Origin: a bacterium
GTDB lineage: Bacteria > CLD3 > SB21
DNA length: 64,000 bases
Direction: 5' to 3'
Assembly: GCA_019695335.1 (NCBI GenBank)
Contig: JAIBAF010000013.1
Location: 3,281 to 67,280 of the forward strand
The notes under the pieces are model-generated. The model had not been told where the DNA came from, did no database searches, and was given only the letters and a program-made list of their open reading frames with translations. Numbering within the stretch: the first letter of the stretch is position 1; each line of letters begins with the position of its first letter. Shown here in pieces: positions 4,128-15,062 of the stretch. Made by a program: the position numbers and the translations under genes.

Positions 4128-5057
4128 TTATTGTGAACAGCCTGAATAACACAAATGTGTTCGCTTACCGTGCCCTGTCGACCATTCCAATTGATTCTCC
4201 GAATGAAATTTGATGATCCAAATTCCAATCGCAATAACGACTAATCCGATAATCATGCGTCGATAACGAACAAAACGATTACCTTTTCCTTGATGTATGA
4301 GGCGATCTAAGCGTTTTTCAAGCGACGCCGTAGCTGAGCTTGCAATCACCGGAACCGCCATTTCATTTCCGAGTGATAAATTCCACACTTTAACAAGGGC
4401 CGACGCCAGTTCCAACGGCCGATTAAAAACTTTCGAAACGATTTCGTCGCATGTTTGTTCATAAAACAGAACAAACGCCGGTTCCACATAACGATTAAAA
4501 AATAAAATCATTATTTGTGCCAACAATACAGAGAGCATGAGGCCGGCAAAATCAAAACGTTCATCAAGCGCCCGGTAAAATATCGCCAGACTGATAGCGT
4601 AAGATATCCATGTCAAAAAAGTTGTGGCCATTACTTTTTGCAAAAATTTCCTTAAATTATCCCGGCGCTTAACATGCACAAGTTCATGGGCCAATACCTG
4701 CCTTAATTCCCATTCATTCAAATTTCTTAATACCAATGGTGTTATAAATATTACCGGCTTCAAAAGCCCGGCGGTAAATACCGGTATCTCATTGGTAATG
4801 ATTCGAAGATCCGGATTAATGTGAAATTTCATAGCCGATGCAACTGACAACATGCTATCGTGCAATACACTATCGGCCTTGACCGATTGTTGAATTAATT
4901 TTTTCATTGAATATCCGTGCGTCCATAATCGAATCACAAATACCAATAGCAGCAAACACAGTAAACTCTGCAGGAAAAGTACATAACCACACCCGATTGG
5001 ATTCACAATAAAAAAACTTAAGAAAGTCAGAATATCGACGTAATACTGGCTCAACAT
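4128..5057 (-). CDS. M56-family (BlaR1/MecR1-like) membrane metalloprotease without a recognisable extracellular sensor domain
   Basis: HEXXH motif in AHELVHVKRRD. Multiple TM helices. Located 1 nt downstream of a BlaI-type repressor gene. Only 309 aa, with a Cys/His-rich tail HGKRTHLCYSGCSQ. Confidence 0.75.
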   Translation of the reverse strand: MLSQYYVDILTFLSFFIVNPIGCGYVLFLQSLLCLLLLVFVIRLWTHGYSMKKLIQQSVKADSVLHDSMLSVASAMKFHINPDLRIITNEIPVFTAGLLKPVIFITPLVLRNLNEWELRQVLAHELVHVKRRDNLRKFLQKVMATTFLTWISYAISLAIFYRALDERFDFAGLMLSVLLAQIMILFFNRYVEPAFVLFYEQTCDEIVSKVFNRPLELASALVKVWNLSLGNEMAVPVIASSATASLEKRLDRLIHQGKGNRFVRYRRMIIGLVVIAIGIWIIKFHSENQLEWSTGHGKRTHLCYSGCSQ

Positions 5058-5058
5058 A

Positions 5059-5484
5059 CTATTTTTTTTGTTTTTTTAATTTGGCGTCAATTAACTTAGA
5101 TAGTTCATGAATTTTCTGAGGATCTTCTTTTTCCAGCGAATCCACAAACTGACTTAATAAGGGCAACGAAAAGTCGGAAAGCAATCCTTTGAGAATAGTT
5201 TGGGAGGTTGTTTGAGTAAATATTTCCCGCGTCAGAATAGGCTCATAAATAAATGCATTCCCATCTTTAATTTTTTTCAATACGCCCTTCTGCGCAAGCC
5301 GCGTCATGACGGTCATAACCGTGGTATACGCAATACGGCGTTTAAGTTTCAATTTTTCAAAAACGTCTCTGACAGTCAAACGGCCGCTATTCCAAAGCAC
5401 TTCCATAATATCGGCTTCAAGATCACCAAAGATTTTTCGCAATCCGGTTTGGCGCGGATCAAATGTAAAATAATACTTTTTCAT
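5059..5484 (-). CDS. BlaI/MecI/CopY family transcriptional repressor
   Basis: 141 aa. Winged-helix region ADIMEVLWNSGRLTVRDVFEKL...YTTVMTVMTRLAQKGVL is typical of the Penicillinase_R family. It is paired with the M56 protease gene. Confidence 0.85.
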   Translation of the reverse strand: MKKYYFTFDPRQTGLRKIFGDLEADIMEVLWNSGRLTVRDVFEKLKLKRRIAYTTVMTVMTRLAQKGVLKKIKDGNAFIYEPILTREIFTQTTSQTILKGLLSDFSLPLLSQFVDSLEKEDPQKIHELSKLIDAKLKKQKK

Positions 5485-5543: not shown

Positions 5544-6719
5544 TTATGAATTAACGTGATTTGAACGAATTCGCCCCAACATACCTGCGGATACTGCGCC
5601 TAAGCCCAGCATACCGATCCAAAGAACGTCCGGTCCCCAATGTTCATAAATCTGAATGCCGATCCATGGCCCGAGAATAAAGGCGAGGCTGAAGGTCATC
5701 TGATAATAACCCATATATTCGCCTCTGCGGTTAGGCGGCGCTATTTCTCCCATATATGCCGCCAATCCTGGAAACAAAATCATTTCGCCAAAAGTCCATA
5801 TCACAACCGACCCGGCTACCGTCCACATGTCGACTGTCAAAATCATAGCACCGAAACCTAAACCGACCAATACGGCACCCAACGCAAGAGTATGGCTATG
5901 TTTCCAATGGCTCATTTTCATATTGAGCCATACTTCCGCAACAATAATCAACGCCGTATTGATCGTAAACAAAATCCCGTAGGCCGATTCATGCAAATGG
6001 AGATCGTTGACCAAATACAAAGGCATCGACGATTCGTGCTGAAAAAAAACCATCACTACCGGCACAACAGCCATCAAGAAATACATGAGCCGTTTATCTT
6101 TATAGGCTATTCCTTCGTGGTGTTGGGTCTGGATCGTCATATCGTGAGAAATAATTCGCCACGGTGCAAACATCAGGACAAATCCGGCCATTAAAGCGAA
6201 TCCCCCATTTACTATAAAAAGCGTTGGATACGACACTAATACTAAAAAACCCCCGACCGCCGGACCGATGCTCATACCGATATTAATAGCGAGCCGTTGA
6301 AGAGCGTATGCTGATTTTCGCTGCCCGGGCTGAGTCATATCCGTAATGACGGCAAGGCTGGCGGGACGAAAAGCTTCACTCATCATCGCCCATGTGACAG
6401 TGGCTCCAAATACAACTGCGAAACTTTGGGCTAAAGGATACGCCATCATGACTATCGATGACAAAAAAAGCGATAAAAGCATAACTTTTCTGTGGCCGAG
6501 AAAATCGGATAACCTTCCTGAAAACGGAGCGGATACCAGTGCCCCAATGCCGTATCCAATAAATACCCATGCAGCCTGATCCGATGAAAAATTCAAATTA
6601 CGTGTCAGGTATAACACCAAAAAGGGCAAAGCCATAGTCCCCGTCCGATTGACCAATGTGGTTGTAAAAATTACCCACAGTTCCTTAGGTAACTCCCGTA
6701 AGCTTTTCCATGGATTCAT
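5544..6719 (-). CDS. MFS transporter
   Basis: 391 aa with about 12 TM helices. MFS loop motif GRLSDFLGHRKV between TM2 and TM3. Confidence 0.8.
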   Translation of the reverse strand: MNPWKSLRELPKELWVIFTTTLVNRTGTMALPFLVLYLTRNLNFSSDQAAWVFIGYGIGALVSAPFSGRLSDFLGHRKVMLLSLFLSSIVMMAYPLAQSFAVVFGATVTWAMMSEAFRPASLAVITDMTQPGQRKSAYALQRLAINIGMSIGPAVGGFLVLVSYPTLFIVNGGFALMAGFVLMFAPWRIISHDMTIQTQHHEGIAYKDKRLMYFLMAVVPVVMVFFQHESSMPLYLVNDLHLHESAYGILFTINTALIIVAEVWLNMKMSHWKHSHTLALGAVLVGLGFGAMILTVDMWTVAGSVVIWTFGEMILFPGLAAYMGEIAPPNRRGEYMGYYQMTFSLAFILGPWIGIQIYEHWGPDVLWIGMLGLGAVSAGMLGRIRSNHVNS

Positions 6720-6749
6720 TTAAAAAAATTTTCCTTTGAGTTTTGCAGT

Positions 6750-7391
6750 TTAATACTGATCCGGATATTTACCTTTGAAATTTAAAAAATAATCGTGCAT
6801 AAAATGAATATCGTTATCCGCATTACCCGTTGGGTAAAAAAGTTCGCCGATATGCAGGATGCGCGTTGGATAGTCGAATGCAACCAAAAGAATTGGCACG
6901 TTGGCTCCAATCGCGATATAATAAAATCCAGTTCGCCATCGTTCTGTTTTTTTTCGTGTTCCCTCCGGTGAAAGACCGAGAATAAATTGTTCATGTCGTC
7001 CAAACAGATCAATGCATTGCCCAACCACGCCATTCGGATGAAAGCGGTCGACGGGCGTTCCACCGAGTTTTTCCCATAATGTTCCGAACGGCCAGCGAAA
7101 AATCGTGTCTTTGCCAAGCCAGCATACTTTAATGTCCAGCGCCATCAGCGCAGCCATGCCGACAACAAAATCCCAATTACTGGTATGCGGTGCGGCAATG
7201 GCCACAAATTTCGGAATGTCCGGTATCGGGCCCGAAACGTTCCATCGTAATATACTCAAGATAATCTGTCCGAACCATCGCACGATGACCCGGTGATAGC
7301 GCGGAATTTGCAAAGATAATTTAGGAAGATCCATGAAAAGGAATTGACAAACAGGCGATGTTTCTATAGATTTTCCAGACACATTAGACAT
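6750..7391 (-). CDS. PlsC-family lysophospholipid (1-acylglycerol-3-phosphate) acyltransferase
   Basis: HxxxxD motif in APHTSNWDF and PEGTR motif in SPEGTRKK. The true start may be an internal Met. Confidence 0.75.
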   Translation of the reverse strand: MSNVSGKSIETSPVCQFLFMDLPKLSLQIPRYHRVIVRWFGQIILSILRWNVSGPIPDIPKFVAIAAPHTSNWDFVVGMAALMALDIKVCWLGKDTIFRWPFGTLWEKLGGTPVDRFHPNGVVGQCIDLFGRHEQFILGLSPEGTRKKTERWRTGFYYIAIGANVPILLVAFDYPTRILHIGELFYPTGNADNDIHFMHDYFLNFKGKYPDQY

Positions 7392-7414
7392 TCCTCAACA
7401 CTTTTTCAAGTACC

Positions 7415-8275
7415 TTGAAAGGCCCTATGGCTGCTAAGAAAAAACACGCCCATCTCAATCACAAAAACATTCCGGTCAAAGCATTCGAAAATCTTGAATT
7501 TCTTCACAGCCCGGAGGCCCGAACAATCAGGATGTTAAGCGAACTGCATGAACCGCTTCGGCGTTTTCGCAAAATCGGTGTGCGCGACACTGTCGTGTTT
7601 TACGGTTCGGCCCGAACTCCCGATCCGGAAACAGCGAAAAAACGCTATAGTGAATTACGTAAAAAAGTTTCCAGGGAAAAAAATCCCTCCCGGAAACTTT
7701 TACAAACATTGGAATATGCTAAAATCGATCTGGATATGTCTCAGTATTACGGCGACGCCATGCAATTAGCTCATTTATTAACCAAATGGTCCCGCTCATT
7801 GTCCGGTGAGAAAAGATTTATTGTATGTTCCGGCGGCGGCCCCGGGATGATGGAGGCAGCCAACCGCGGAGCAAAAAAAGCAGGCGGTCCTTCGATTGGG
7901 TTGAATATCGAATTGCCATTCGAACAGATACCTAATAGTTACATCACACCGGAACTCAATTTTGAATTCCATTATTTTTTCATGCGCAAATTTTGGTTCG
8001 CTTATTTGGCTAAAGCATTGGTAGTTTTTCCAGGAGGATTTGGAACTCTGGATGAACTTTTTGAAATTCTGACGCTTGTGCAAACCAAAAAAATCGAAAA
8101 ACCGCTGACGATTGTGATCTACGGATCAGAATATTGGAAGGAAGTCATTAACTTCGATACCATGGTTCGGCATCATATGATCAGTTCGGAAGATCTCGAT
8201 CTCTTCCATTTTGCCGACACACCCGAATCAGCTTTCGAATTTCTCAAAAAGCAACTCACTAAAAATTATTTGTAG
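7415..8275 (+). CDS. LOG/TIGR00730 family Rossmann-fold nucleotide-binding protein
   Basis: Motifs GGGPGMMEAANRGA and PGGFGTLDELFE. Confidence 0.8.
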   Translation: MKGPMAAKKKHAHLNHKNIPVKAFENLEFLHSPEARTIRMLSELHEPLRRFRKIGVRDTVVFYGSARTPDPETAKKRYSELRKKVSREKNPSRKLLQTLEYAKIDLDMSQYYGDAMQLAHLLTKWSRSLSGEKRFIVCSGGGPGMMEAANRGAKKAGGPSIGLNIELPFEQIPNSYITPELNFEFHYFFMRKFWFAYLAKALVVFPGGFGTLDELFEILTLVQTKKIEKPLTIVIYGSEYWKEVINFDTMVRHHMISSEDLDLFHFADTPESAFEFLKKQLTKNYL

Positions 8276-8421
8276 ATCATGCCAATTCCCCATTTAAATC
8301 TCCTTTAAAGCAATTGAGAACTCATCTCATTTTGAAACCCACATTAAAGATTTTTAATTTTTACTCCGCAACTATTTTAGTATAATATTCTGGCAACTTT
8401 GGACTGCAACTATGGAAAACA

Positions 8422-9753
8422 ATGAACGAATCGTTGCTTACTCTGTCGCTCTCACTATTATTATTTGCGTTAGTGTTTATTCCCTATCTTTGGTTTACCC
8501 AAAAGAAAAGAAAAACATTTGAGGCCAAAAAGCAGGAGGCCATTGCACTGGGGCATGATAAACCTGTTGCCCAACATCCGCTGATCGATCAATCCCGATG
8601 TATTGGTTGTGCGGCATGTGTTATTGCATGCCCGGAACATGCGCTCGGCATGATCGACGGAATGGCCGAATTGGTTTATCCCGGTAAATGCGTTGGCCAT
8701 GGTGTTTGCGCGGAAGCCTGCCCTGTCTCGGGCATTCGCATTGTGCTCGATCCCGCCAAATCAACTGCTGAATTACCTCTACTGGATGAATTTTTCCAAT
8801 CGAATGTTCCGAATGTGTATCTTATCGGGGAACTCGGCGGGATGGCACTGCTGCGTAATGCAATCTATCAAGGCAAATCGGTTATTGAACATATTTCCGA
8901 AAAAATTAAAAGTTCGCCCCGTCAAACAAACAATCCTTCACGGCATGACGTTATTATTATCGGTGCCGGTCCGGCCGGTCTCAGCGCCGCGCTCATGGCT
9001 CAGAAAAACGGATTAAATTATCTCCTGCTTGAGAAAGAAGAAACACCGGGCGGCGCCATTTTAAGTTACCCGCGTCAGAAACTCGTGATGACCATGCCCG
9101 TCGAAATTCCGCAATATGGCGTGCTCAAAAAACGCGAATTATCCAAAGAAGATTTATTAACGCTCTGGTCGGACATTATTCAGAAAACTTCTCTTAAAGT
9201 TACTTGCAATGAACGCCTTGAAGATGTGATTCACCATGAAGGAGCGCTGACGGTTGTCACTTCAGGTGGAAATCGTTACGATGCCGAACATGTTGTGTTA
9301 GCGCTGGGTCGTCGCGGAACTCCGCGAAAACTGAATGTACCCGGAGAACAATCGTCTAAAGTCGCTTACCAACTTCTTGAAGCCGTACGGTATAAACACA
9401 TGCATTGTATGGTCGTCGGCGCCGGCGACAGCGGTATCGAAGCTGCGATCGCACTTTCCAAGCAACATGGAACGACCGTTACGTTGATCAATCGCGGCAC
9501 GGACTTCCAGCGCGCCAAATCCAAAAATCAGGACCGTGTCCGTGAAGCTGAAACACAAAACCTGATCAAAATTTATTACCAATCTTCGGTTTCAGACATT
9601 CGTGATCACAGCATAACCATTCAATCACCGGAAGGCTCACTTGAAATAACCAACGATTTCATTTTCATTTTCGCGGGCGGCGAAATGCCGACGCCGTTCC
9701 TTAAAAAAATCGGAATAGAATTTACTCACAAAGACCGGATGATCGCCGCATGA
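8422..9753 (+). CDS. Membrane-anchored 2x[4Fe-4S] ferredoxin domain fused to an FAD/NAD(P)-dependent pyridine-nucleotide-disulfide-oxidoreductase-like domain
   Basis: N-terminal TM helix followed by KKRK. Cluster motifs CIGCAACVIACP and CVGHGVCAEACP. Dinucleotide motifs IIIGAGPAGLSAA and VVGAGDSGIEAA. Confidence 0.8.
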   Translation: MNESLLTLSLSLLLFALVFIPYLWFTQKKRKTFEAKKQEAIALGHDKPVAQHPLIDQSRCIGCAACVIACPEHALGMIDGMAELVYPGKCVGHGVCAEACPVSGIRIVLDPAKSTAELPLLDEFFQSNVPNVYLIGELGGMALLRNAIYQGKSVIEHISEKIKSSPRQTNNPSRHDVIIIGAGPAGLSAALMAQKNGLNYLLLEKEETPGGAILSYPRQKLVMTMPVEIPQYGVLKKRELSKEDLLTLWSDIIQKTSLKVTCNERLEDVIHHEGALTVVTSGGNRYDAEHVVLALGRRGTPRKLNVPGEQSSKVAYQLLEAVRYKHMHCMVVGAGDSGIEAAIALSKQHGTTVTLINRGTDFQRAKSKNQDRVREAETQNLIKIYYQSSVSDIRDHSITIQSPEGSLEITNDFIFIFAGGEMPTPFLKKIGIEFTHKDRMIAA

Positions 9754-10628
9754 ACCGAACATTGCACAGCATTTACATCCTCTCATTGACGGTCATTGGA
9801 ATTCTGATTGTCGCATGGATCGGAATTTACGGATGGAGTTATTATGCTACCGATGTGCCGGACCGGCATGAACATGCGTTGCATTCTACCCTTAGCCCCA
9901 CCGGATTTTGGGGACATGGAATGGGATTCATCGGCGCTTTCCTGATGACATTCGGCGTAGTCATGTACTCGCTCAGAAAACGTTGGAAATTGCTAGCCAA
10001 GGTCGGAATGATCAAGCATGTACTGGAACTGCATATTTTTTTGTGCCTGATTGGCCCCGCATTGATCGTCTATCACACAGCATTTAAGTTTGGAGGCATT
10101 GTGGGTGTGAGTTTTTGGTGCATGATGATCGTTGTTGCAAGCGGAGTGATTGGGCGATATCTATACTTGCAAATTCCAAAAACCGTAACCGGCCGCGAGA
10201 TTACTTCTTACGAACTTGAAAAACAGATTGACGCACTTCGAAAAAAATTATTGGATGAATTTAAAATACCCATAGAGTTTATAGCTCACATCGACGCCAT
10301 TTCCAGTGAACTGATCGAATCATCGAAAGCATCGCTAATTACAACTTTCCCAAAACTCGTCATACAAAACTTACGTCACGATGTTCGCGTTCGGTCTCTG
10401 ATTGCGTCGCTGTCGCACCAAAACGGATCGGCATCCGCCGAAGTGGTCAATGCCATTGCTGAAAAATCTCACTTACAAAGACAATTGGCTAATCTCACGG
10501 TCACGCAGAAACTATTTCGCTATTGGCATATGTTTCATTTACCGTTTGCAGTAGTCATGTTCATAATTATGATCGCTCATATTGTGGCAGCGTTTTTGTT
10601 TGGTTACGGTTGGATATTTACAGAATAG
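9750..10628 (+). CDS. 5-TM membrane protein with two His-x13-His helices (putative di-heme b-type cytochrome)
   Basis: Helices LHIFLCLIGPALIVYH and FHLPFAVVMFIIMIAH each carry His-x13-His. ATGA overlap with the upstream flavoprotein gene. The CDS is well supported; heme binding is inferred. Confidence 0.6.
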   Translation: MNRTLHSIYILSLTVIGILIVAWIGIYGWSYYATDVPDRHEHALHSTLSPTGFWGHGMGFIGAFLMTFGVVMYSLRKRWKLLAKVGMIKHVLELHIFLCLIGPALIVYHTAFKFGGIVGVSFWCMMIVVASGVIGRYLYLQIPKTVTGREITSYELEKQIDALRKKLLDEFKIPIEFIAHIDAISSELIESSKASLITTFPKLVIQNLRHDVRVRSLIASLSHQNGSASAEVVNAIAEKSHLQRQLANLTVTQKLFRYWHMFHLPFAVVMFIIMIAHIVAAFLFGYGWIFTE

Positions 10629-10667: not shown

Positions 10668-11246
10668 ATGAAAGACAAAAAAACTCTGGGACTTGTCGCC
10701 CTCGGAATAACGTTGTTAGTTTTTGCAGGATACAATTATTTCCAGTTGCCTAAATCTAAGCCGGTTTCCAATGAAGACACGGCTTCTTTACAGACCAGCA
10801 TTTCTTCCATTGACGGTAAAACCATGCCGGCCAACCATGATCAATTAGTTCAAGCCGATCAACTCAGAGAACATTTGAAATCGAATCCAACCGACACCGA
10901 TCATTGGGTTCAATTGGGTAATTTGCTTTTTGATGCAGGAAATTTTGCAGATGCTGTCGAACCGTACCGTACAGCACTCCAATTACGCCCGACAGATAAC
11001 GACGTACGAACCGATTATGCCGTTTGCTTGTTCAATACCAATCGATCCGATGAAGCAATTGCTGAGTTGAATACGGTCATCAAAAGTAATCCGAACCATA
11101 GCACGGCTTTATATAATATAGGTGTCATCCATTCGCATAGTGGCCGCAACGATCAAGCTAGAACATTCTGGAATCGGGCGATTGAGGCGGCGCCGAATTC
11201 CGACATCGCACAAAAAGCCCGGCAAGCTTTGGCTAATCTGAAATAA
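10668..11246 (+). CDS. TM-anchored periplasmic TPR protein (NrfG/CcmI-like, possible apocytochrome chaperone)
   Basis: N-terminal anchor LGLVALGITLLVFAGY. About three to four TPR units (WVQLGNLLFDAGNFADAVEPYRTAL, ALYNIGVIHSHSGRNDQARTFWNRAIE). Position is immediately upstream of the multiheme cytochrome genes. Confidence 0.6.
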   Translation: MKDKKTLGLVALGITLLVFAGYNYFQLPKSKPVSNEDTASLQTSISSIDGKTMPANHDQLVQADQLREHLKSNPTDTDHWVQLGNLLFDAGNFADAVEPYRTALQLRPTDNDVRTDYAVCLFNTNRSDEAIAELNTVIKSNPNHSTALYNIGVIHSHSGRNDQARTFWNRAIEAAPNSDIAQKARQALANLK

Positions 11247-11249
11247 AAA

Positions 11250-13016
11250 ATGAAACTCCTCATTACATTTATTCTCAATGTTCTTATAATTCCAGTCTGT
11301 GTCTACGCTCAATTTTCTCCCGGTGAATTGGCCCAATCGCATGCACATCTCGAAGGCATTGACAACTGTACGCAATGCCACGATCTTGGAAAGAAAATTG
11401 AAAATTCCAAATGTATCGATTGCCATTCGTTGATAAAAAACCGTATTGAAAAAAAGACCGGCTATCATGCTTCTACAGAAGTGCAGGGAAAACTGTGTTA
11501 CGAATGCCACCGCGATCACAATGGACGGAAATTCATCATGGTTGAATGGAAACCGTCGAAAGAAAAATTCAATCATGATCTAACCGGTTACAAACTCGAG
11601 GGAAAACATAAAACCGATAAGTGCGAAGCCTGCCATCAACCCGATTTTATCAAAGATCAGGGTGTGATCCAACGGGTAAAAGATGGGTTAAATTTAAAAC
11701 AAACTTTTCTCGGACTTTTTCAAGATTGCCGTTCATGCCATTTTGATGAACATCGCGGTCAATTCGATGATTGTTCAAAGTGTCATGATTTCCAGGATTG
11801 GAAACAATCGTCTTCCGCTAAATTTGATCATCAAAAAGCACGGTATGCGTTAACCGGTAGACATTTGTCTGTAGAATGTGTAAAATGCCACGCTCCCGTA
11901 AACGATTCGAAGAAAAAACCGGATGGAAAAACTGACCTCGATTATTTTAAATACAAACCGCTTAATTTTTCAAACTGTACTCCTTGCCATGCCGATCCGC
12001 ATGAAAACAAATTTGGCCAAAACTGCACGTCGTGTCACGTGACTTCAGACTGGCGAAATATTCGCAATCAATCCTTCGACCACTCTCTGACACGTTATCC
12101 ATTAGTAGGAAAACATACGACAGTGGCCTGCGAACGTTGCCATCAGCCTGATCCTAAAAAGCCGTCCGTTTACAAAAATATGAAATTTGCAGAGTGCACG
12201 GACTGTCACGCCGACGCACACGCTGGACAACTGGCCGCGAGAGCGGATAAGGGCAAATGCGAATCGTGTCATGACGTCTTCGGATTCCATCCATCGCTCT
12301 TTACCCTCGCCAGGCATACAACGGAGAGCCGTTACCCGTTGACCGGCGCTCACGAAAAAACCGAATGTATCAAATGCCACGTAAAATTATCTCCAAAGGA
12401 ATTTAAAGATCGAACGGGTTTCAAGGCGACGGCCGATTCAAATTTCATCGCACTCAAGTTTTTCGATCAGCGTTGCAGCGCCTGTCACAAAGACATCCAT
12501 CGCGGCCAATTTGCGGAAAAATTAAAAAATAATGATTGCAACATCTGCCATAAAACATCGGCATGGAAAGATCTGATTTTTGATCACGCCAAAGATTCAG
12601 GATTTCCATTGTTAGGCAAACATCAAAACGTTACCTGCGACCAATGTCATCCGATGGTCGATGCGACGACGGAATTCAAACGCGTTTTATACAAACCTGT
12701 TTCGAAATTCTGCGAACACTGCCACACTGATATTCATGAAGGACAACTTACTCAACATCCCGACGCTACTACCGCTCATCCGAAAACTTATTGCGAAAAT
12801 TGCCACACCAACGATGCGTTCAAGCCGACGATTTTTGATCACAATAAACAATCGCGCTACGCACTGACCGGCGCACATCAAAAAGTCGCATGCAATAAAT
12901 GCCACCTACAAACTACGATCAAAGCGGATACGTTGAATACTCTGTACAAGCCGATCAGCACGGAATGTGCCGCCTGCCATCCCGATCAACATGAAGGAGT
13001 GTTTGAAATCAAATGA
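11250..13016 (+). CDS. Secreted multiheme c-type cytochrome, 20 CxxCH motifs
   Basis: Signal peptide MKLLITFILNVLIIPVCVYAQ. I counted 20 CxxCH motifs in the translation. There are six repeats of F-[DN]-H..L.G.H....CxxCH (one begins A-R-H instead), typical of c7/c3-like triheme modules. Confidence 0.9.
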   Translation: MKLLITFILNVLIIPVCVYAQFSPGELAQSHAHLEGIDNCTQCHDLGKKIENSKCIDCHSLIKNRIEKKTGYHASTEVQGKLCYECHRDHNGRKFIMVEWKPSKEKFNHDLTGYKLEGKHKTDKCEACHQPDFIKDQGVIQRVKDGLNLKQTFLGLFQDCRSCHFDEHRGQFDDCSKCHDFQDWKQSSSAKFDHQKARYALTGRHLSVECVKCHAPVNDSKKKPDGKTDLDYFKYKPLNFSNCTPCHADPHENKFGQNCTSCHVTSDWRNIRNQSFDHSLTRYPLVGKHTTVACERCHQPDPKKPSVYKNMKFAECTDCHADAHAGQLAARADKGKCESCHDVFGFHPSLFTLARHTTESRYPLTGAHEKTECIKCHVKLSPKEFKDRTGFKATADSNFIALKFFDQRCSACHKDIHRGQFAEKLKNNDCNICHKTSAWKDLIFDHAKDSGFPLLGKHQNVTCDQCHPMVDATTEFKRVLYKPVSKFCEHCHTDIHEGQLTQHPDATTAHPKTYCENCHTNDAFKPTIFDHNKQSRYALTGAHQKVACNKCHLQTTIKADTLNTLYKPISTECAACHPDQHEGVFEIK

Positions 13017-13765
13017 AAATGATTTTTTTTACAGCATTTTTGGTAATGGCGTTTGAATGGAACAATTTACCGGCCAAGCCCGATAATACAATTTCATTGG
13101 ACACTAGTTTGTTGCCGGACACGCCGTTCGTCAAAATTCCGCACAAAACGTTTGATGTCCCATGCGAAGCATGTCACACAACCGAATCGTGGAAAATTTT
13201 GAAACCCAGGATCGATTTTGATCATGCGCGTACGGGATTTCCTCTAATTGGCGCCCACGAGCAGATTGCCTGCAATGCTTGTCACGCGGGAGGCAAGTTC
13301 AACGCAACGGTTCGTGAATGTTATATGTGCCATGAAGACCCGCATCAGGCTCAGCTCGGCGTCGACTGTGAACGCTGTCATAATGAAAATGCCTGGGCGC
13401 CCTCGATTTTCACTCACGACGATCAAACATTTTTTATGACGGGCGCGCACAAAGGACTCGATTGCGCCAGTTGCCACAAAAATCTGATCACTTTTAAAAT
13501 GCCGGCTATCCAGGAATGCGGCGATTGCCACGTTCCGATCGGTGCGACCACGGATCATAACCAGTACAAAATTTTCGGCGACTGTCTCTCATGCCACAAT
13601 TTAAACGCGTGGGACAACTATCCTCATTTAGACGAATGGTTTTCGCTCACCGGCCATCATCGCCGCAGTTGTGAAACCTGTCATCGCCAGGCGCCAAACT
13701 ATTCAACCTATACTTGTCGTGAATGTCACGATTTCGATCATAAAGGCGAAGGGCATGACGATTAA
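13013..13765 (+). CDS. Secreted multiheme c-type cytochrome, 9 CxxCH motifs
   Basis: Hydrophobic N-terminus. 9 CxxCH motifs counted. Same module type as the 20-heme protein (FDHARTGFPLIGAHEQIACNACH). ATGA overlap with the 20-heme gene. Confidence 0.9.
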   Translation: MKMIFFTAFLVMAFEWNNLPAKPDNTISLDTSLLPDTPFVKIPHKTFDVPCEACHTTESWKILKPRIDFDHARTGFPLIGAHEQIACNACHAGGKFNATVRECYMCHEDPHQAQLGVDCERCHNENAWAPSIFTHDDQTFFMTGAHKGLDCASCHKNLITFKMPAIQECGDCHVPIGATTDHNQYKIFGDCLSCHNLNAWDNYPHLDEWFSLTGHHRRSCETCHRQAPNYSTYTCRECHDFDHKGEGHDD

Positions 13766-13781
13766 CGTCATTTGAATTATT

Positions 13782-15062
13782 ATGAAAAAATTGATCATAC
13801 TTTATTTGTTTGCCGCAACAACTTCGGCATTCAGCCAAATTGCCGGATCGAACAATAATCTCGTCGGACGTTTTTCAGTTGGATGGAATTACTATTCTGA
13901 AGGCGCGTCGTTGTCGCCGCAACTCAACAGTTTTACCAATTACGGAATGCTTAACTATCGTTCATTCTCCAATGACGGACAGACGATCCGATATCAATTT
14001 CGTGGAGATTTTTACCAGAAAACAGGTCTGACGACAACACCCACTCTTGATCGCAGCGCTCAATTTAAAAACCGTTATATTGTCAGACAATTGTACGGTT
14101 CCTATTCAATTTTTCACGGTGAAATTAAACTGGGACGTGTTGTTCCGCTGGGTACGAATGTCGACGCGTATCCGATCAACGGAGCTGTTGTAGAAAATAT
14201 GATAGTAAACAACGTATGGCGCGTATCGGCTTTCGGTGGAAAAATTCACGATGAATATGCCAATCGTTTCGAAGGATTAGGCTACAACGCCGGAGGAAGC
14301 GTGACTTACGATCGCAAAACGTGGATACTCGGAACAGGATTTACTTCCGAACAATTGCGTGAGACTAAATTAAGCAAAGCGTATCTCTTCGGAGAATATC
14401 GCCCGTCATTGCAATGGCGTTTTAGTTCACGTAATCAGTATATCACTAATCGTTCGTTGATCGGCTATTCTCAAAATGCGCTGTTGTATCGAATCAATAG
14501 AAATTTCAGCGTACGTCTGTTTGCCGAATATCATGATCGACGGGCGTATGCGCCGGCGCCAACGGACAGCATCGGATGGGACCGCTTTTTCGAAACAAAA
14601 AAAGAAACTCTGTTCGGCGGCACGGTTCGCTACCAGCTTTTTAACCGCAAAAATATCGGCGCGATAGAAATTGTCCCGGCTTTCAAAAAGCGGATCGGTA
14701 ACGACGGCTTGACATATGGCGCTGTGCAATTAAATTATCGAAATTATTTCTGGTCGCGATTTAATTGCGGAATTGCCGGCAGTTATACCAGCAATCAGTG
14801 GCTCGACAATGTCAAAGCAAGCGTATACTGGAACAAAAATTTTCTTGATGGAAAATTAGACGGTGGAATTTCAGCGGCATTTAACGCTTATAAGTGGAGT
14901 AATGCCGGGGCCGGCACTAAAAATTTATCAACTGTTTCATTTGATATGAATTATCGTTTGAATACTGCATGGAACATCACGTGCGTTGTATATGAAGAAT
15001 TCGGCAATGCGACCGATCCTCATTCGGGAATCAATGTACGGATGAATTATTATCTACGATAA
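13782..15062 (+). CDS. Predicted outer-membrane beta-barrel protein (porin-like partner of the cytochromes)
   Basis: Signal peptide MKKLIILYLFAATTSAFSQ. Aromatic- and Gly/Asn-rich alternating segments throughout (for example YGAVQLNYRNYF, FDMNYRLN, GINVRMNYY). Starts 16 nt after the 9-heme gene. Confidence 0.55.
   Translation: MKKLIILYLFAATTSAFSQIAGSNNNLVGRFSVGWNYYSEGASLSPQLNSFTNYGMLNYRSFSNDGQTIRYQFRGDFYQKTGLTTTPTLDRSAQFKNRYIVRQLYGSYSIFHGEIKLGRVVPLGTNVDAYPINGAVVENMIVNNVWRVSAFGGKIHDEYANRFEGLGYNAGGSVTYDRKTWILGTGFTSEQLRETKLSKAYLFGEYRPSLQWRFSSRNQYITNRSLIGYSQNALLYRINRNFSVRLFAEYHDRRAYAPAPTDSIGWDRFFETKKETLFGGTVRYQLFNRKNIGAIEIVPAFKKRIGNDGLTYGAVQLNYRNYFWSRFNCGIAGSYTSNQWLDNVKASVYWNKNFLDGKLDGGISAAFNAYKWSNAGAGTKNLSTVSFDMNYRLNTAWNITCVVYEEFGNATDPHSGINVRMNYYLR

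Follow-up and report, generated by a model that had tools for sequence, protein, structure and literature searches.

The stretch of DNA analysed here (the window) spans 64,000 nucleotides of contig JAIBAF010000013.1 (positions 3,281 to 67,280 of the forward strand; GenBank assembly GCA_019695335.1), from a bacterium of the GTDB lineage CLD3; SB21 that inhabits wastewater or activated sludge. Between positions 8422 and 15062 the window holds a gene cluster with intergenic gaps of -4 to 39 bp, which encodes an iron-sulfur (FeS) flavoprotein, a 292-amino-acid (aa) membrane protein and multiheme cytochromes c (Table 1). The 292-aa protein is the subject of this work. It fits the description of the membrane protein called IMP in the gene clusters PCC3 and PCC4, and we consider it a candidate di-heme b cytochrome. 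Its start codon overlaps the stop codon of the flavoprotein gene in an ATGA overlap CCGCATGAACC.

Hydropathy resolves five hydrophobic segments in the protein (aa ~7-30, 55-76, 88-111, 116-140 and 257-286). An AlphaFold2 model built from 49 homologues (pLDDT 83, pTM 0.75) places transmembrane (TM) helices at 3-33, 53-78, 88-110 and 117-141. These are followed by soluble helices at 153-170, 175-191 and 196-224, and then by a single long helix, 230-284, which enters TM5. The matching segments and helices bear out the five TM helices of a preliminary description of this DNA, made from the sequence alone; the soluble, helix-rich segment of about 100 residues that it had placed before the last helix is also real, at ~115 aa. 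The same description had called attention to two helices that each carry a His-x13-His spacing, and on that basis had proposed a pair of transmembrane b hemes. Both motifs read in the translation as quoted there (L94-H95...Y108-H109 and F262-H263...A276-H277), and all four His lie inside the predicted TM3 and TM5.

TM2 is followed by a strongly basic loop (RKRWKLLAK) and TM1 by an acidic one, a distribution that by the positive-inside rule would put the N-terminus and the TM4-TM5 insert in the cytoplasm and the C-terminus in the periplasm. H95 and H263 would then stand near the cytoplasmic ends of their helices and H109 and H277 near the periplasmic ends, affording two bis-His sites at two membrane depths. 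Conserved basic residues are found beside both predicted heme sites (R76, K77 and R136 inside, K113 outside) and could serve in the manner common to such residues, by neutralising heme propionates.

None of the four His varies in 49 relatives (39-85% identity). They are also invariant in 70 more distant cluster representatives (25-40% identity), where they belong to a set of nine invariant columns: G59, Y73, G132, G135, W259, H95, H109, H263 and H277. Among these 70, S131 and R136 are conserved in at least 90%, the SGxxG motif is present in 67, and both full WX3HX13H motifs are present in 65; at aa 91 on TM3, the window protein has V where at least 90% of the relatives have W. When residues were shuffled within helices, two HX13H helices appeared in 1.2% of trials. 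Two hydrophobic HX13H motifs were found in 91 of the 1250 open reading frames of at least 150 aa from 91 related loci, and all 91 belong to this superfamily. The TM4-TM5 insert keeps its length with a poorly conserved sequence (its consensus is mostly "x"); it is shortened in relatives of 250 aa and absent from a 183-aa paralogue. As far as in silico tests able to refute the di-heme b proposal were run, all of them favoured it. We consider it likely that the 292-aa protein binds heme b.

The family is large. The 292-aa protein has 675 close homologues, none of them named, and an exhaustive profile search returned 3973 clusters at 50% identity, of which 700 fall below E 1e-30. Relatives are encoded in at least 595 species-level genomes, mostly of Ignavibacteriota and Bacteroidota (Prolixibacteraceae, Saprospiraceae, Marinilabiliaceae); two isolates, Maribellus sediminis and Mangrovibacterium lignilyticum, are among the hosts.

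The preliminary description did not assign the protein to any named family, a statement that needs correction. PCC3 was described as a set of a porin, two multiheme cytochromes, one of them extracellular (median 34 hemes) and the other periplasmic (median 21 hemes), and an IMP of ~300 aa (He et al. 2017, PMC5566968). The IMP of PCC3 and PCC4 has five TM helices, of which TM4 bears a defining SGXXG while TM3 and TM5 each bear WX3HX13H; it was likened to the ferric-reductase domain, proposed to hold two b hemes and modelled as quinone-active (He et al. 2017, PMC5566968). The window protein has 292 aa, five TM helices and S131-G-V-I-G135 on TM4. On TM5 it carries the full motif (W259x3H263x13H277), and on TM3 the HX13H pair with V91 at the W position. 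Genes for a 20-heme cytochrome, a 9-heme cytochrome and a secreted, unannotated 426-aa protein follow it. In length, TM helices and motifs the protein fits the published description. The di-heme b idea is accordingly already known, and the window protein re-finds the PCC3-type IMP of 2017.

The window cluster resembles PCC3 in joining to the IMP a ~20-heme, presumably periplasmic cytochrome, a further cytochrome and a presumed outer-membrane protein. It differs in several respects. PCC3 was described in Proteobacteria as four genes without a flavoprotein and under a quinone-active model, whereas an FeS flavoprotein joins the cluster in the window and across Ignavibacteriota, Bacteroidota and Myxococcota. 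The second cytochrome, large in PCC3, is small in the window (9 hemes). No proteobacterial PCC3 cluster was found in the plasmid collection or around the relative P0269. What is new beyond the 2017 description is the near-obligate FeS-flavoprotein partner and the swapping of the reductase in distant branches of the family, both described below.

Profile similarity was assessed by Pfam scans of three member sets of relatives (49, 70 and 36 members). The weak matches of these relatives converge on b-heme transmembrane families only, namely DUF4405, Ferric_reduct and Ni_hydr_CYTB. DUF4405 (PF14358) was matched weakly by 23/49, 44/70 and 18/36 members, with the last helix aligned; P0269 is the sole member above the cut-off (28.2 vs 26.7 bits). 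Sub-threshold matches to Ferric_reduct (PF01794) were obtained for 25/70 and 24/36 members, with TM2-TM3 aligned to profile positions 1-60, the first half of the profile, and a best score of 22 bits against a cut-off of 28. Ni_hydr_CYTB (PF01292) was matched weakly by 8/49 and 15/70 members, mostly through the last helix, with scores of at most 20.6 bits (cut-off 30.1). Two of the relatives have a precomputed label (PF01794, PF14358), and short ones go by the name "iron reductase" in some sources.

Membership in three other groups was considered. The cytochrome b family of bc1/b6f complexes (PF00033/PF13631) and the NarI/DsrM type (PF02665; His on TM2 and TM5 in NarI) were rejected, with no profile match in any of the 49 + 70 + 36 members, and scores for the cytochrome b561/HydC/FdnI type (PF01292) stayed below cut-off throughout. 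The comparison with bc1/b6f cytochrome b drawn in the preliminary description holds as an analogy between two pairs of His-x13-His helices, and not as family membership. Bc1/b6f cytochrome b stacks two b hemes, but its ligands are carried by helices B and D, and the protein has eight helices (or 4+3) and quinone sites.

The flavoprotein encoded directly upstream contains two Fer4 motifs and a Pyr_redox domain, in agreement with its earlier reading as an FeS flavoprotein whose stop codon the IMP start overlaps. In 70 of 75 homologues the N-terminus forms a hydrophobic anchor, after which comes a Lys/Arg-rich stretch, and the flavoprotein lacks a twin-arginine (Tat) motif. The absence of this motif, together with the positive stretch after the anchor, suggests that its cofactor domains should be cytoplasmic. 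The flavin domain is nearest to TrxR-like, YpdA and TrxR-type FNR structures (PDB 7a76, 7a7b), and a second GxGxxG is present for NAD(P)H. Judged from its sequence, the protein is not a disulfide reductase, because the redox-active CxxC of TrxR is absent; seven of its nine Cys lie in the two FeS motifs.

These ferredoxin motifs (aa 52-100, positions 8575-8721) read C60xx(C/S)63xxC66xxxC70P and C90xxH93xxC96xxxC100P and are not the standard two copies of CxxCxxCxxxCP. Eight residues are invariant in the 75 homologues (H52, C60, C66, C70, C90, H93, C96 and C100), and position 63 is Cys in the window protein and Ser in 58% of homologues. The invariance of H93 and H52, with the departure from the standard motif, suggests that one cluster is a His-ligated [4Fe-4S] or a [3Fe-4S] cluster. 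This unusual His-containing cluster is possibly the exit cluster.

The association of these genes extends well beyond the window. In all 51 loci with full flanks, a multiheme cytochrome lies within 6 kb on the same strand, and an FeS flavoprotein does so in 48 of the 51. The usual set comprises the IMP, the flavoprotein, two cytochromes, of which one has ~530 aa and 20 CxxCH motifs and the other 6-72 such motifs, and an unannotated secreted protein of 530-600 aa. Across phyla, the first cytochrome has exactly 20 CxxCH motifs in most loci (L001-L083, e.g. L052, L024, L051); the second ranges from 6 to 72 over the same loci and reaches 1808 aa. Gene order is less constant. The flavoprotein gene lies upstream of that for the IMP within the window and downstream of it in most loci; in L003 it comes after the cytochromes, and in a Myxococcota contig it is divergent. 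In Emticicia oligotrophica DSM 17448, whose IMP orthologue is WP_015031196.1, the whole set is on plasmid pEMTOL02, directly after ccsA.

In distant branches the reductase itself is exchanged. A tblastn search located relatives of 250 aa on plasmids of Alteromonas, Variovorax, Methylophaga and Spirosoma. These align with the window family at an hhalign probability of 99.85% (E 1e-30), with the four His, SGxxG and both W in register. Each is encoded between a ~260-aa cytochrome c3 and a membrane-anchored protein of 640-690 aa with FAD_binding_6, NAD_binding_1 and 2Fe-2S domains. A Sphingobium relative adjoins a third Rossmann flavoprotein type and a 10-heme protein. In L008, the closest relative on a large contig, a 183-aa paralogue (7553-8104) with two HX13H motifs and no insert (hhalign probability 96.4%) is located between a 10-heme cytochrome gene and the long-type gene, so that two generations of the module are neighbours there.

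The 250-aa plasmid relatives and the L008 paralogue fit a pattern already tabulated, in which porin-free trios consist of a multiheme cytochrome (7-10 hemes), a 5-TM IMP with two HX13H motifs and a redox protein of 410-805 aa (He et al. 2017, Supplementary Table 6, PMC5566968). These trios differ from the window system in a shorter IMP with the insert reduced or absent, in having neither a porin nor a giant cytochrome, and in a reductase of FNR-like plus 2Fe-2S type. Short-type trios were located on plasmids at 5974-9457 (L087), 5899-9573 (L088), 7058-10412 (L089) and 6887-10472 (L091). The Variovorax, Methylophaga and Spirosoma trios lie inside copper/heavy-metal islands (multicopper oxidase, Cu/heavy-metal P-type ATPase, CopB), and the Alteromonas macleodii trio adjoins an operon for a [NiFe] hydrogenase. 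In the Alteromonas reductase the N-terminal periplasmic part is rich in Met MMGPGMAKGMDKMMEKMG, a hint of a role related to metals.

The occurrence of unrelated NAD(P)H-flavin-FeS reductases beside one and the same membrane protein is the strongest argument that the IMP takes its electrons from such a module and not from quinol. Flavoprotein linkage and reductase swapping together suggest an NAD(P)H-fed, quinone-independent entry into the porin-cytochrome conduit. That the IMP is the inner-membrane subunit of this conduit, on a route that leads the whole way from NAD(P)H to periplasmic cytochromes, seems probable to us. A fuller and more novel reading is that the system is a quinone-independent, split, NOX-like NAD(P)H:multiheme-cytochrome oxidoreductase. 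In it, an FeS flavoprotein would feed a 5-TM di-heme b protein and, through it, the conduit; the system would be widespread in Ignavibacteriota, Bacteroidota and Myxococcota, would have recruited at least three unrelated flavin/FeS reductases, and would use the TM4-TM5 loop and the His-ligated FeS cluster as its entry port. We assign this reading a probability of roughly 0.45.

The 2017 model offers a different account, in which the IMP is a quinone-coupled cytochrome b whose hemes link the menaquinone pool to periplasmic multiheme cytochromes, as a quinol dehydrogenase or quinone reductase in the manner of NarI, HydC or CbcL, and the flavoprotein is accessory or feeds the quinone pool. This is what was proposed for the PCC3/PCC4 IMPs (He et al. 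2017, PMC5566968), and the published PCC3, with its four genes, has no flavoprotein. The weak Ni_hydr_CYTB matches among relatives point the same way. Routes of extracellular electron transfer (EET) are, moreover, known to start from CymA, ImcH and CbcL. Yet the flavoprotein linkage is tight and independent of gene order, and a quinone site leaves unexplained why distant branches should swap to unrelated NAD(P)H-flavin-FeS proteins. In addition, two HX13H motifs on TM3 and TM5 are the pattern of ferric reductases, which are not quinone-reactive, rather than that of NarI or FdnI, and the NarI family gave no match. On balance we judge quinone coupling unlikely.

In the split oxidoreductase that we favour, two b hemes would be held by bis-His ligation, the inner one by H95 (TM3) and H263 (TM5) and the outer one by H109 and H277. 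The membrane-anchored flavoprotein would oxidise NAD(P)H at its FAD on the cytoplasmic side and pass electrons via its two FeS clusters to the inner heme b. Heme-to-heme transfer from inner to outer would carry them across the bilayer, after which the outer heme would reduce the 20-heme periplasmic cytochrome c. From there the second multiheme cytochrome, and then the presumed outer-membrane barrel, would relay electrons to an extracellular or periplasmic acceptor. The scheme would amount to the logic of NADPH oxidase or ferric reductase split over several polypeptides, with an FeS relay and without quinone. In NOX enzymes the B and D loops contact the dehydrogenase; the basic TM2-TM3 loop and the TM4-TM5 insert occupy the corresponding positions in the IMP and could form the docking surface.

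Outward flow would be favoured by both redox potential and membrane potential. Such a route would conserve no energy and would dissipate charge while regenerating NAD+; if it is assumed to act as an overflow valve, energy-wasting export becomes plausible. The opposite direction has also to be weighed, with electrons taken up from extracellular Fe(II) or a cathode and delivered through the b hemes and the flavoprotein to NAD(P)+. PCC3 was defined in the genomes of Fe(II) oxidisers, its inner-membrane gene was upregulated in the iron-oxidising Sideroxydans CL21, and TrxR-like FNRs are reversible. Transfer from Fe(II) or heme b to NAD(P)+ would nonetheless be strongly uphill and against the membrane potential, with no coupling site visible, and the hosts are mostly organotrophic Bacteroidota and Ignavibacteriota. 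We regard inward uptake as very improbable.

Known systems offer partial parallels to the arrangement. Proteins of the ferric-reductase domain (NOX, FRE, MsrQ and STEAP; PF01794) take electrons from cytoplasmic NAD(P)H via flavin and release them at the outer side, and the loops that follow TM2 and TM4 in the cytoplasm are turned towards the dehydrogenase. As predicted for the IMP, they have a cytoplasmic N-terminus and bis-His ligation on TM3 and TM5 with i/i+14 spacing. Unlike them, the system described here would have as its dehydrogenase a polypeptide of its own, different in fold and fitted with two FeS clusters, and a multiheme cytochrome c as its presumed acceptor. The Hmc, Tmc and DsrMKJOP complexes of sulfate reducers join a periplasmic multiheme cytochrome c, a membrane di-heme b protein and a cytoplasmic FeS protein in one path, and the window system would share this arrangement. 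These complexes differ in a NarI-like b subunit, an HdrD-like partner without a flavin or NAD(P)H site, and inward flow; sequence similarity to Hmc, Tmc or DsrMKJOP was not detected.

DUF4405, matched through the last helix only, gives the best weak Pfam similarity of the IMP family. DUF4405 and FezC proteins have been shown to bind heme b, and the flavinylation-associated cytochromes of the DUF4405, FezC, PepSY-like and MsrQ-like types are proposed to carry electrons across the cytoplasmic membrane (PMC11334425). Like the IMP, the DUF4405-type group consists of small membrane proteins in which four central His are the most conserved residues (PMC11334425). It differs in having six TM helices and ApbE-flavinylated extracytosolic partners, and the window cluster has no apbE or FMN-binding genes.

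Apart from the quinone model, several observations weigh against the oxidoreductase reading. The window protein itself has no Pfam or NCBIfam match, and a profile search of PDB sequences returned no relative, only coiled-coil noise from the insert. Foldseek searches of the PDB, with the window model and with that of a 254-aa short-type relative picked for its smaller insert, gave nothing below E 0.4, and the di-heme protein Dcytb appeared only at E = 1. The IMP has five TM helices and the ferric-reductase domain six. As late as 2025 PCC3 was termed "functionally unverified". When a helical conservation moment was used to ask whether the His lie on the conserved face, the signal was weak (offsets of 11-63 degrees, worse without the His), and we give it no evidential weight. 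RNA runs holding the IMP gene were not found. The barrel status of the 426-aa protein also counts here, its beta-amphipathicity signal being weak (z = 1.8), as does the energy cost of the proposed export.

The top Foldseek matches, ABC-exporter helices and BAR domains, are driven by the long stalk helices of TM4 and TM5. In the AlphaFold2 models of both the window protein and P0343, these two helices run on far into the cytoplasm as a stalk. In the comparison with known families that the preliminary description had called for, the weak Pfam matches of relatives point to b-heme families, and Foldseek returned no significant fold. The IMP shares with the ferric-reductase domain the placement of His on TM3 and TM5 of a bundle with its N-terminus inside, and departs from it in profile match, number of TM helices and fold; the models do not demonstrate a fold within the ferric-reductase superfamily. 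As neither AlphaFold2 model (window protein, P0343) has a significant PDB fold match, the IMP family may be a fold variant without a solved example.

The same lack of a fold match, with the copper/heavy-metal islands that house short relatives, could be taken to mean that the protein is not a cytochrome, that its His bind another metal or line a channel, as in a metal transporter or sensor, and that its link to cytochromes is indirect. We give this little credence. Several features fit electron transfer instead: the way the His are spaced, paired by depth and placed on TM3 and TM5, the resemblance to DUF4405 and Ferric_reduct, and the flavin/FeS and heme c proteins that constantly accompany the protein.

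Table 1 Features of the IMP gene and its cluster in the window.
Feature	Positions	Strand	Description	Basis
Flavoprotein gene	8422-9753	+	443 aa; N-terminal anchor, two-cluster ferredoxin and FAD/NAD(P)H domain	Pfam Fer4 families, Pyr_redox_3/2
IMP gene	9750-10628	+	Candidate di-heme b cytochrome, PCC3-type IMP	Open reading frame and translation, 292 aa, 5 TM
IMP, TM3 (aa 88-111)	10011-10082	+	H95 (10032-10034) and H109 (10074-10076), 13 residues between	
IMP, TM4 (aa 116-140)	10095-10169	+	S131-G-V-I-G135 (10140-10154); conserved R136/Y139 at cytoplasmic end	
IMP, TM4-TM5 insert (aa 141-256)	10170-10517	+	Predicted cytoplasmic helical insert	AlphaFold2 helices, consensus
IMP, TM5 (aa 257-286)	10518-10607	+	W259-x3-H263-x13-H277 and near-invariant H260	His codons 10536-10538, 10578-10580
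TPR protein gene	10668-11246	+	192 aa; membrane-anchored or secreted, CcmH/CycH-type TPR	PF23914 60.2 bits, cut-off 42
Multiheme cytochrome c gene	11250-13016	+	588 aa; secreted, 20 CxxCH	Cytochrome_C7/c3/MtrC-like Pfam, signal peptide
Cytochrome c gene	13013-13765	+	250 aa; secreted, 9 CxxCH	Motif count
Presumed outer-membrane beta-barrel (porin) gene	13782-15062	+	426 aa; N/G/S/Y-rich, without TM helix	Signal peptide, composition

Of the remaining cluster products, the 588-aa 20-heme cytochrome is proposed to act as the periplasmic wire. The 426-aa protein has no Pfam, NCBIfam or PDB match, and an iterated search found homologues only in the three closest loci; elsewhere the unannotated protein of 530-600 aa takes its place in the cluster. 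Homologues of the TPR protein are encoded in 32 of 83 related loci, and it is probably a dedicated apocytochrome c chaperone for very large cytochromes. The presence of this CcmH/CycH-type gene within the cluster, and of ccsA directly before it in Emticicia, raises the question of whether the system is instead a maturation aid, in which flavoprotein and b hemes keep heme or apocytochrome Cys reduced during assembly and do not feed the conduit. CcmF, a b-heme protein proposed to reduce heme, provides a precedent. Against this, most loci lack an adjacent biogenesis gene, thiol reduction normally proceeds via CcdA/DsbD-type proteins, and the cytochromes paired with short relatives are small (7-10 hemes) and do not require a special system. 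Of all the explanations weighed, a role in maturation appears to us the most improbable.

A LOG-family ("possible lysine decarboxylase") gene lies at 7415-8275 on the same strand, 146 bp upstream of the flavoprotein gene. It was not found with the cluster elsewhere among the related loci and for that reason is probably unrelated to it. Further upstream, on the minus strand (4128-5484), are what we take by eye to be a BlaI/MecI-type repressor (5059-5484) and a HELVH zinc-peptidase membrane protein (4128-5057), presumably a BlaR1/BlaI-like sensor pair.

Known entry points of bacterial EET are quinol dehydrogenases (CymA, ImcH, CbcL) or Ndh2 with demethylmenaquinone. If the favoured reading is true, direct transfer from NAD(P)H to multiheme cytochromes by way of FeS clusters and a pair of b hemes would constitute a different entry point, on a route that dissipates energy and regenerates NAD+. 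The IMP family comprises ~4000 clusters at 50% identity and lacks both a Pfam model and a relative of solved structure. Sludge, sediments and anode biofilms are common habitats of the Bacteroidota and Ignavibacteriota species, hundreds in number, that carry it, and its cultured hosts include Emticicia oligotrophica DSM 17448 as well as Maribellus sediminis and Mangrovibacterium lignilyticum. The quinone-based model for PCC3 in iron oxidisers would, on the same condition, need revision.

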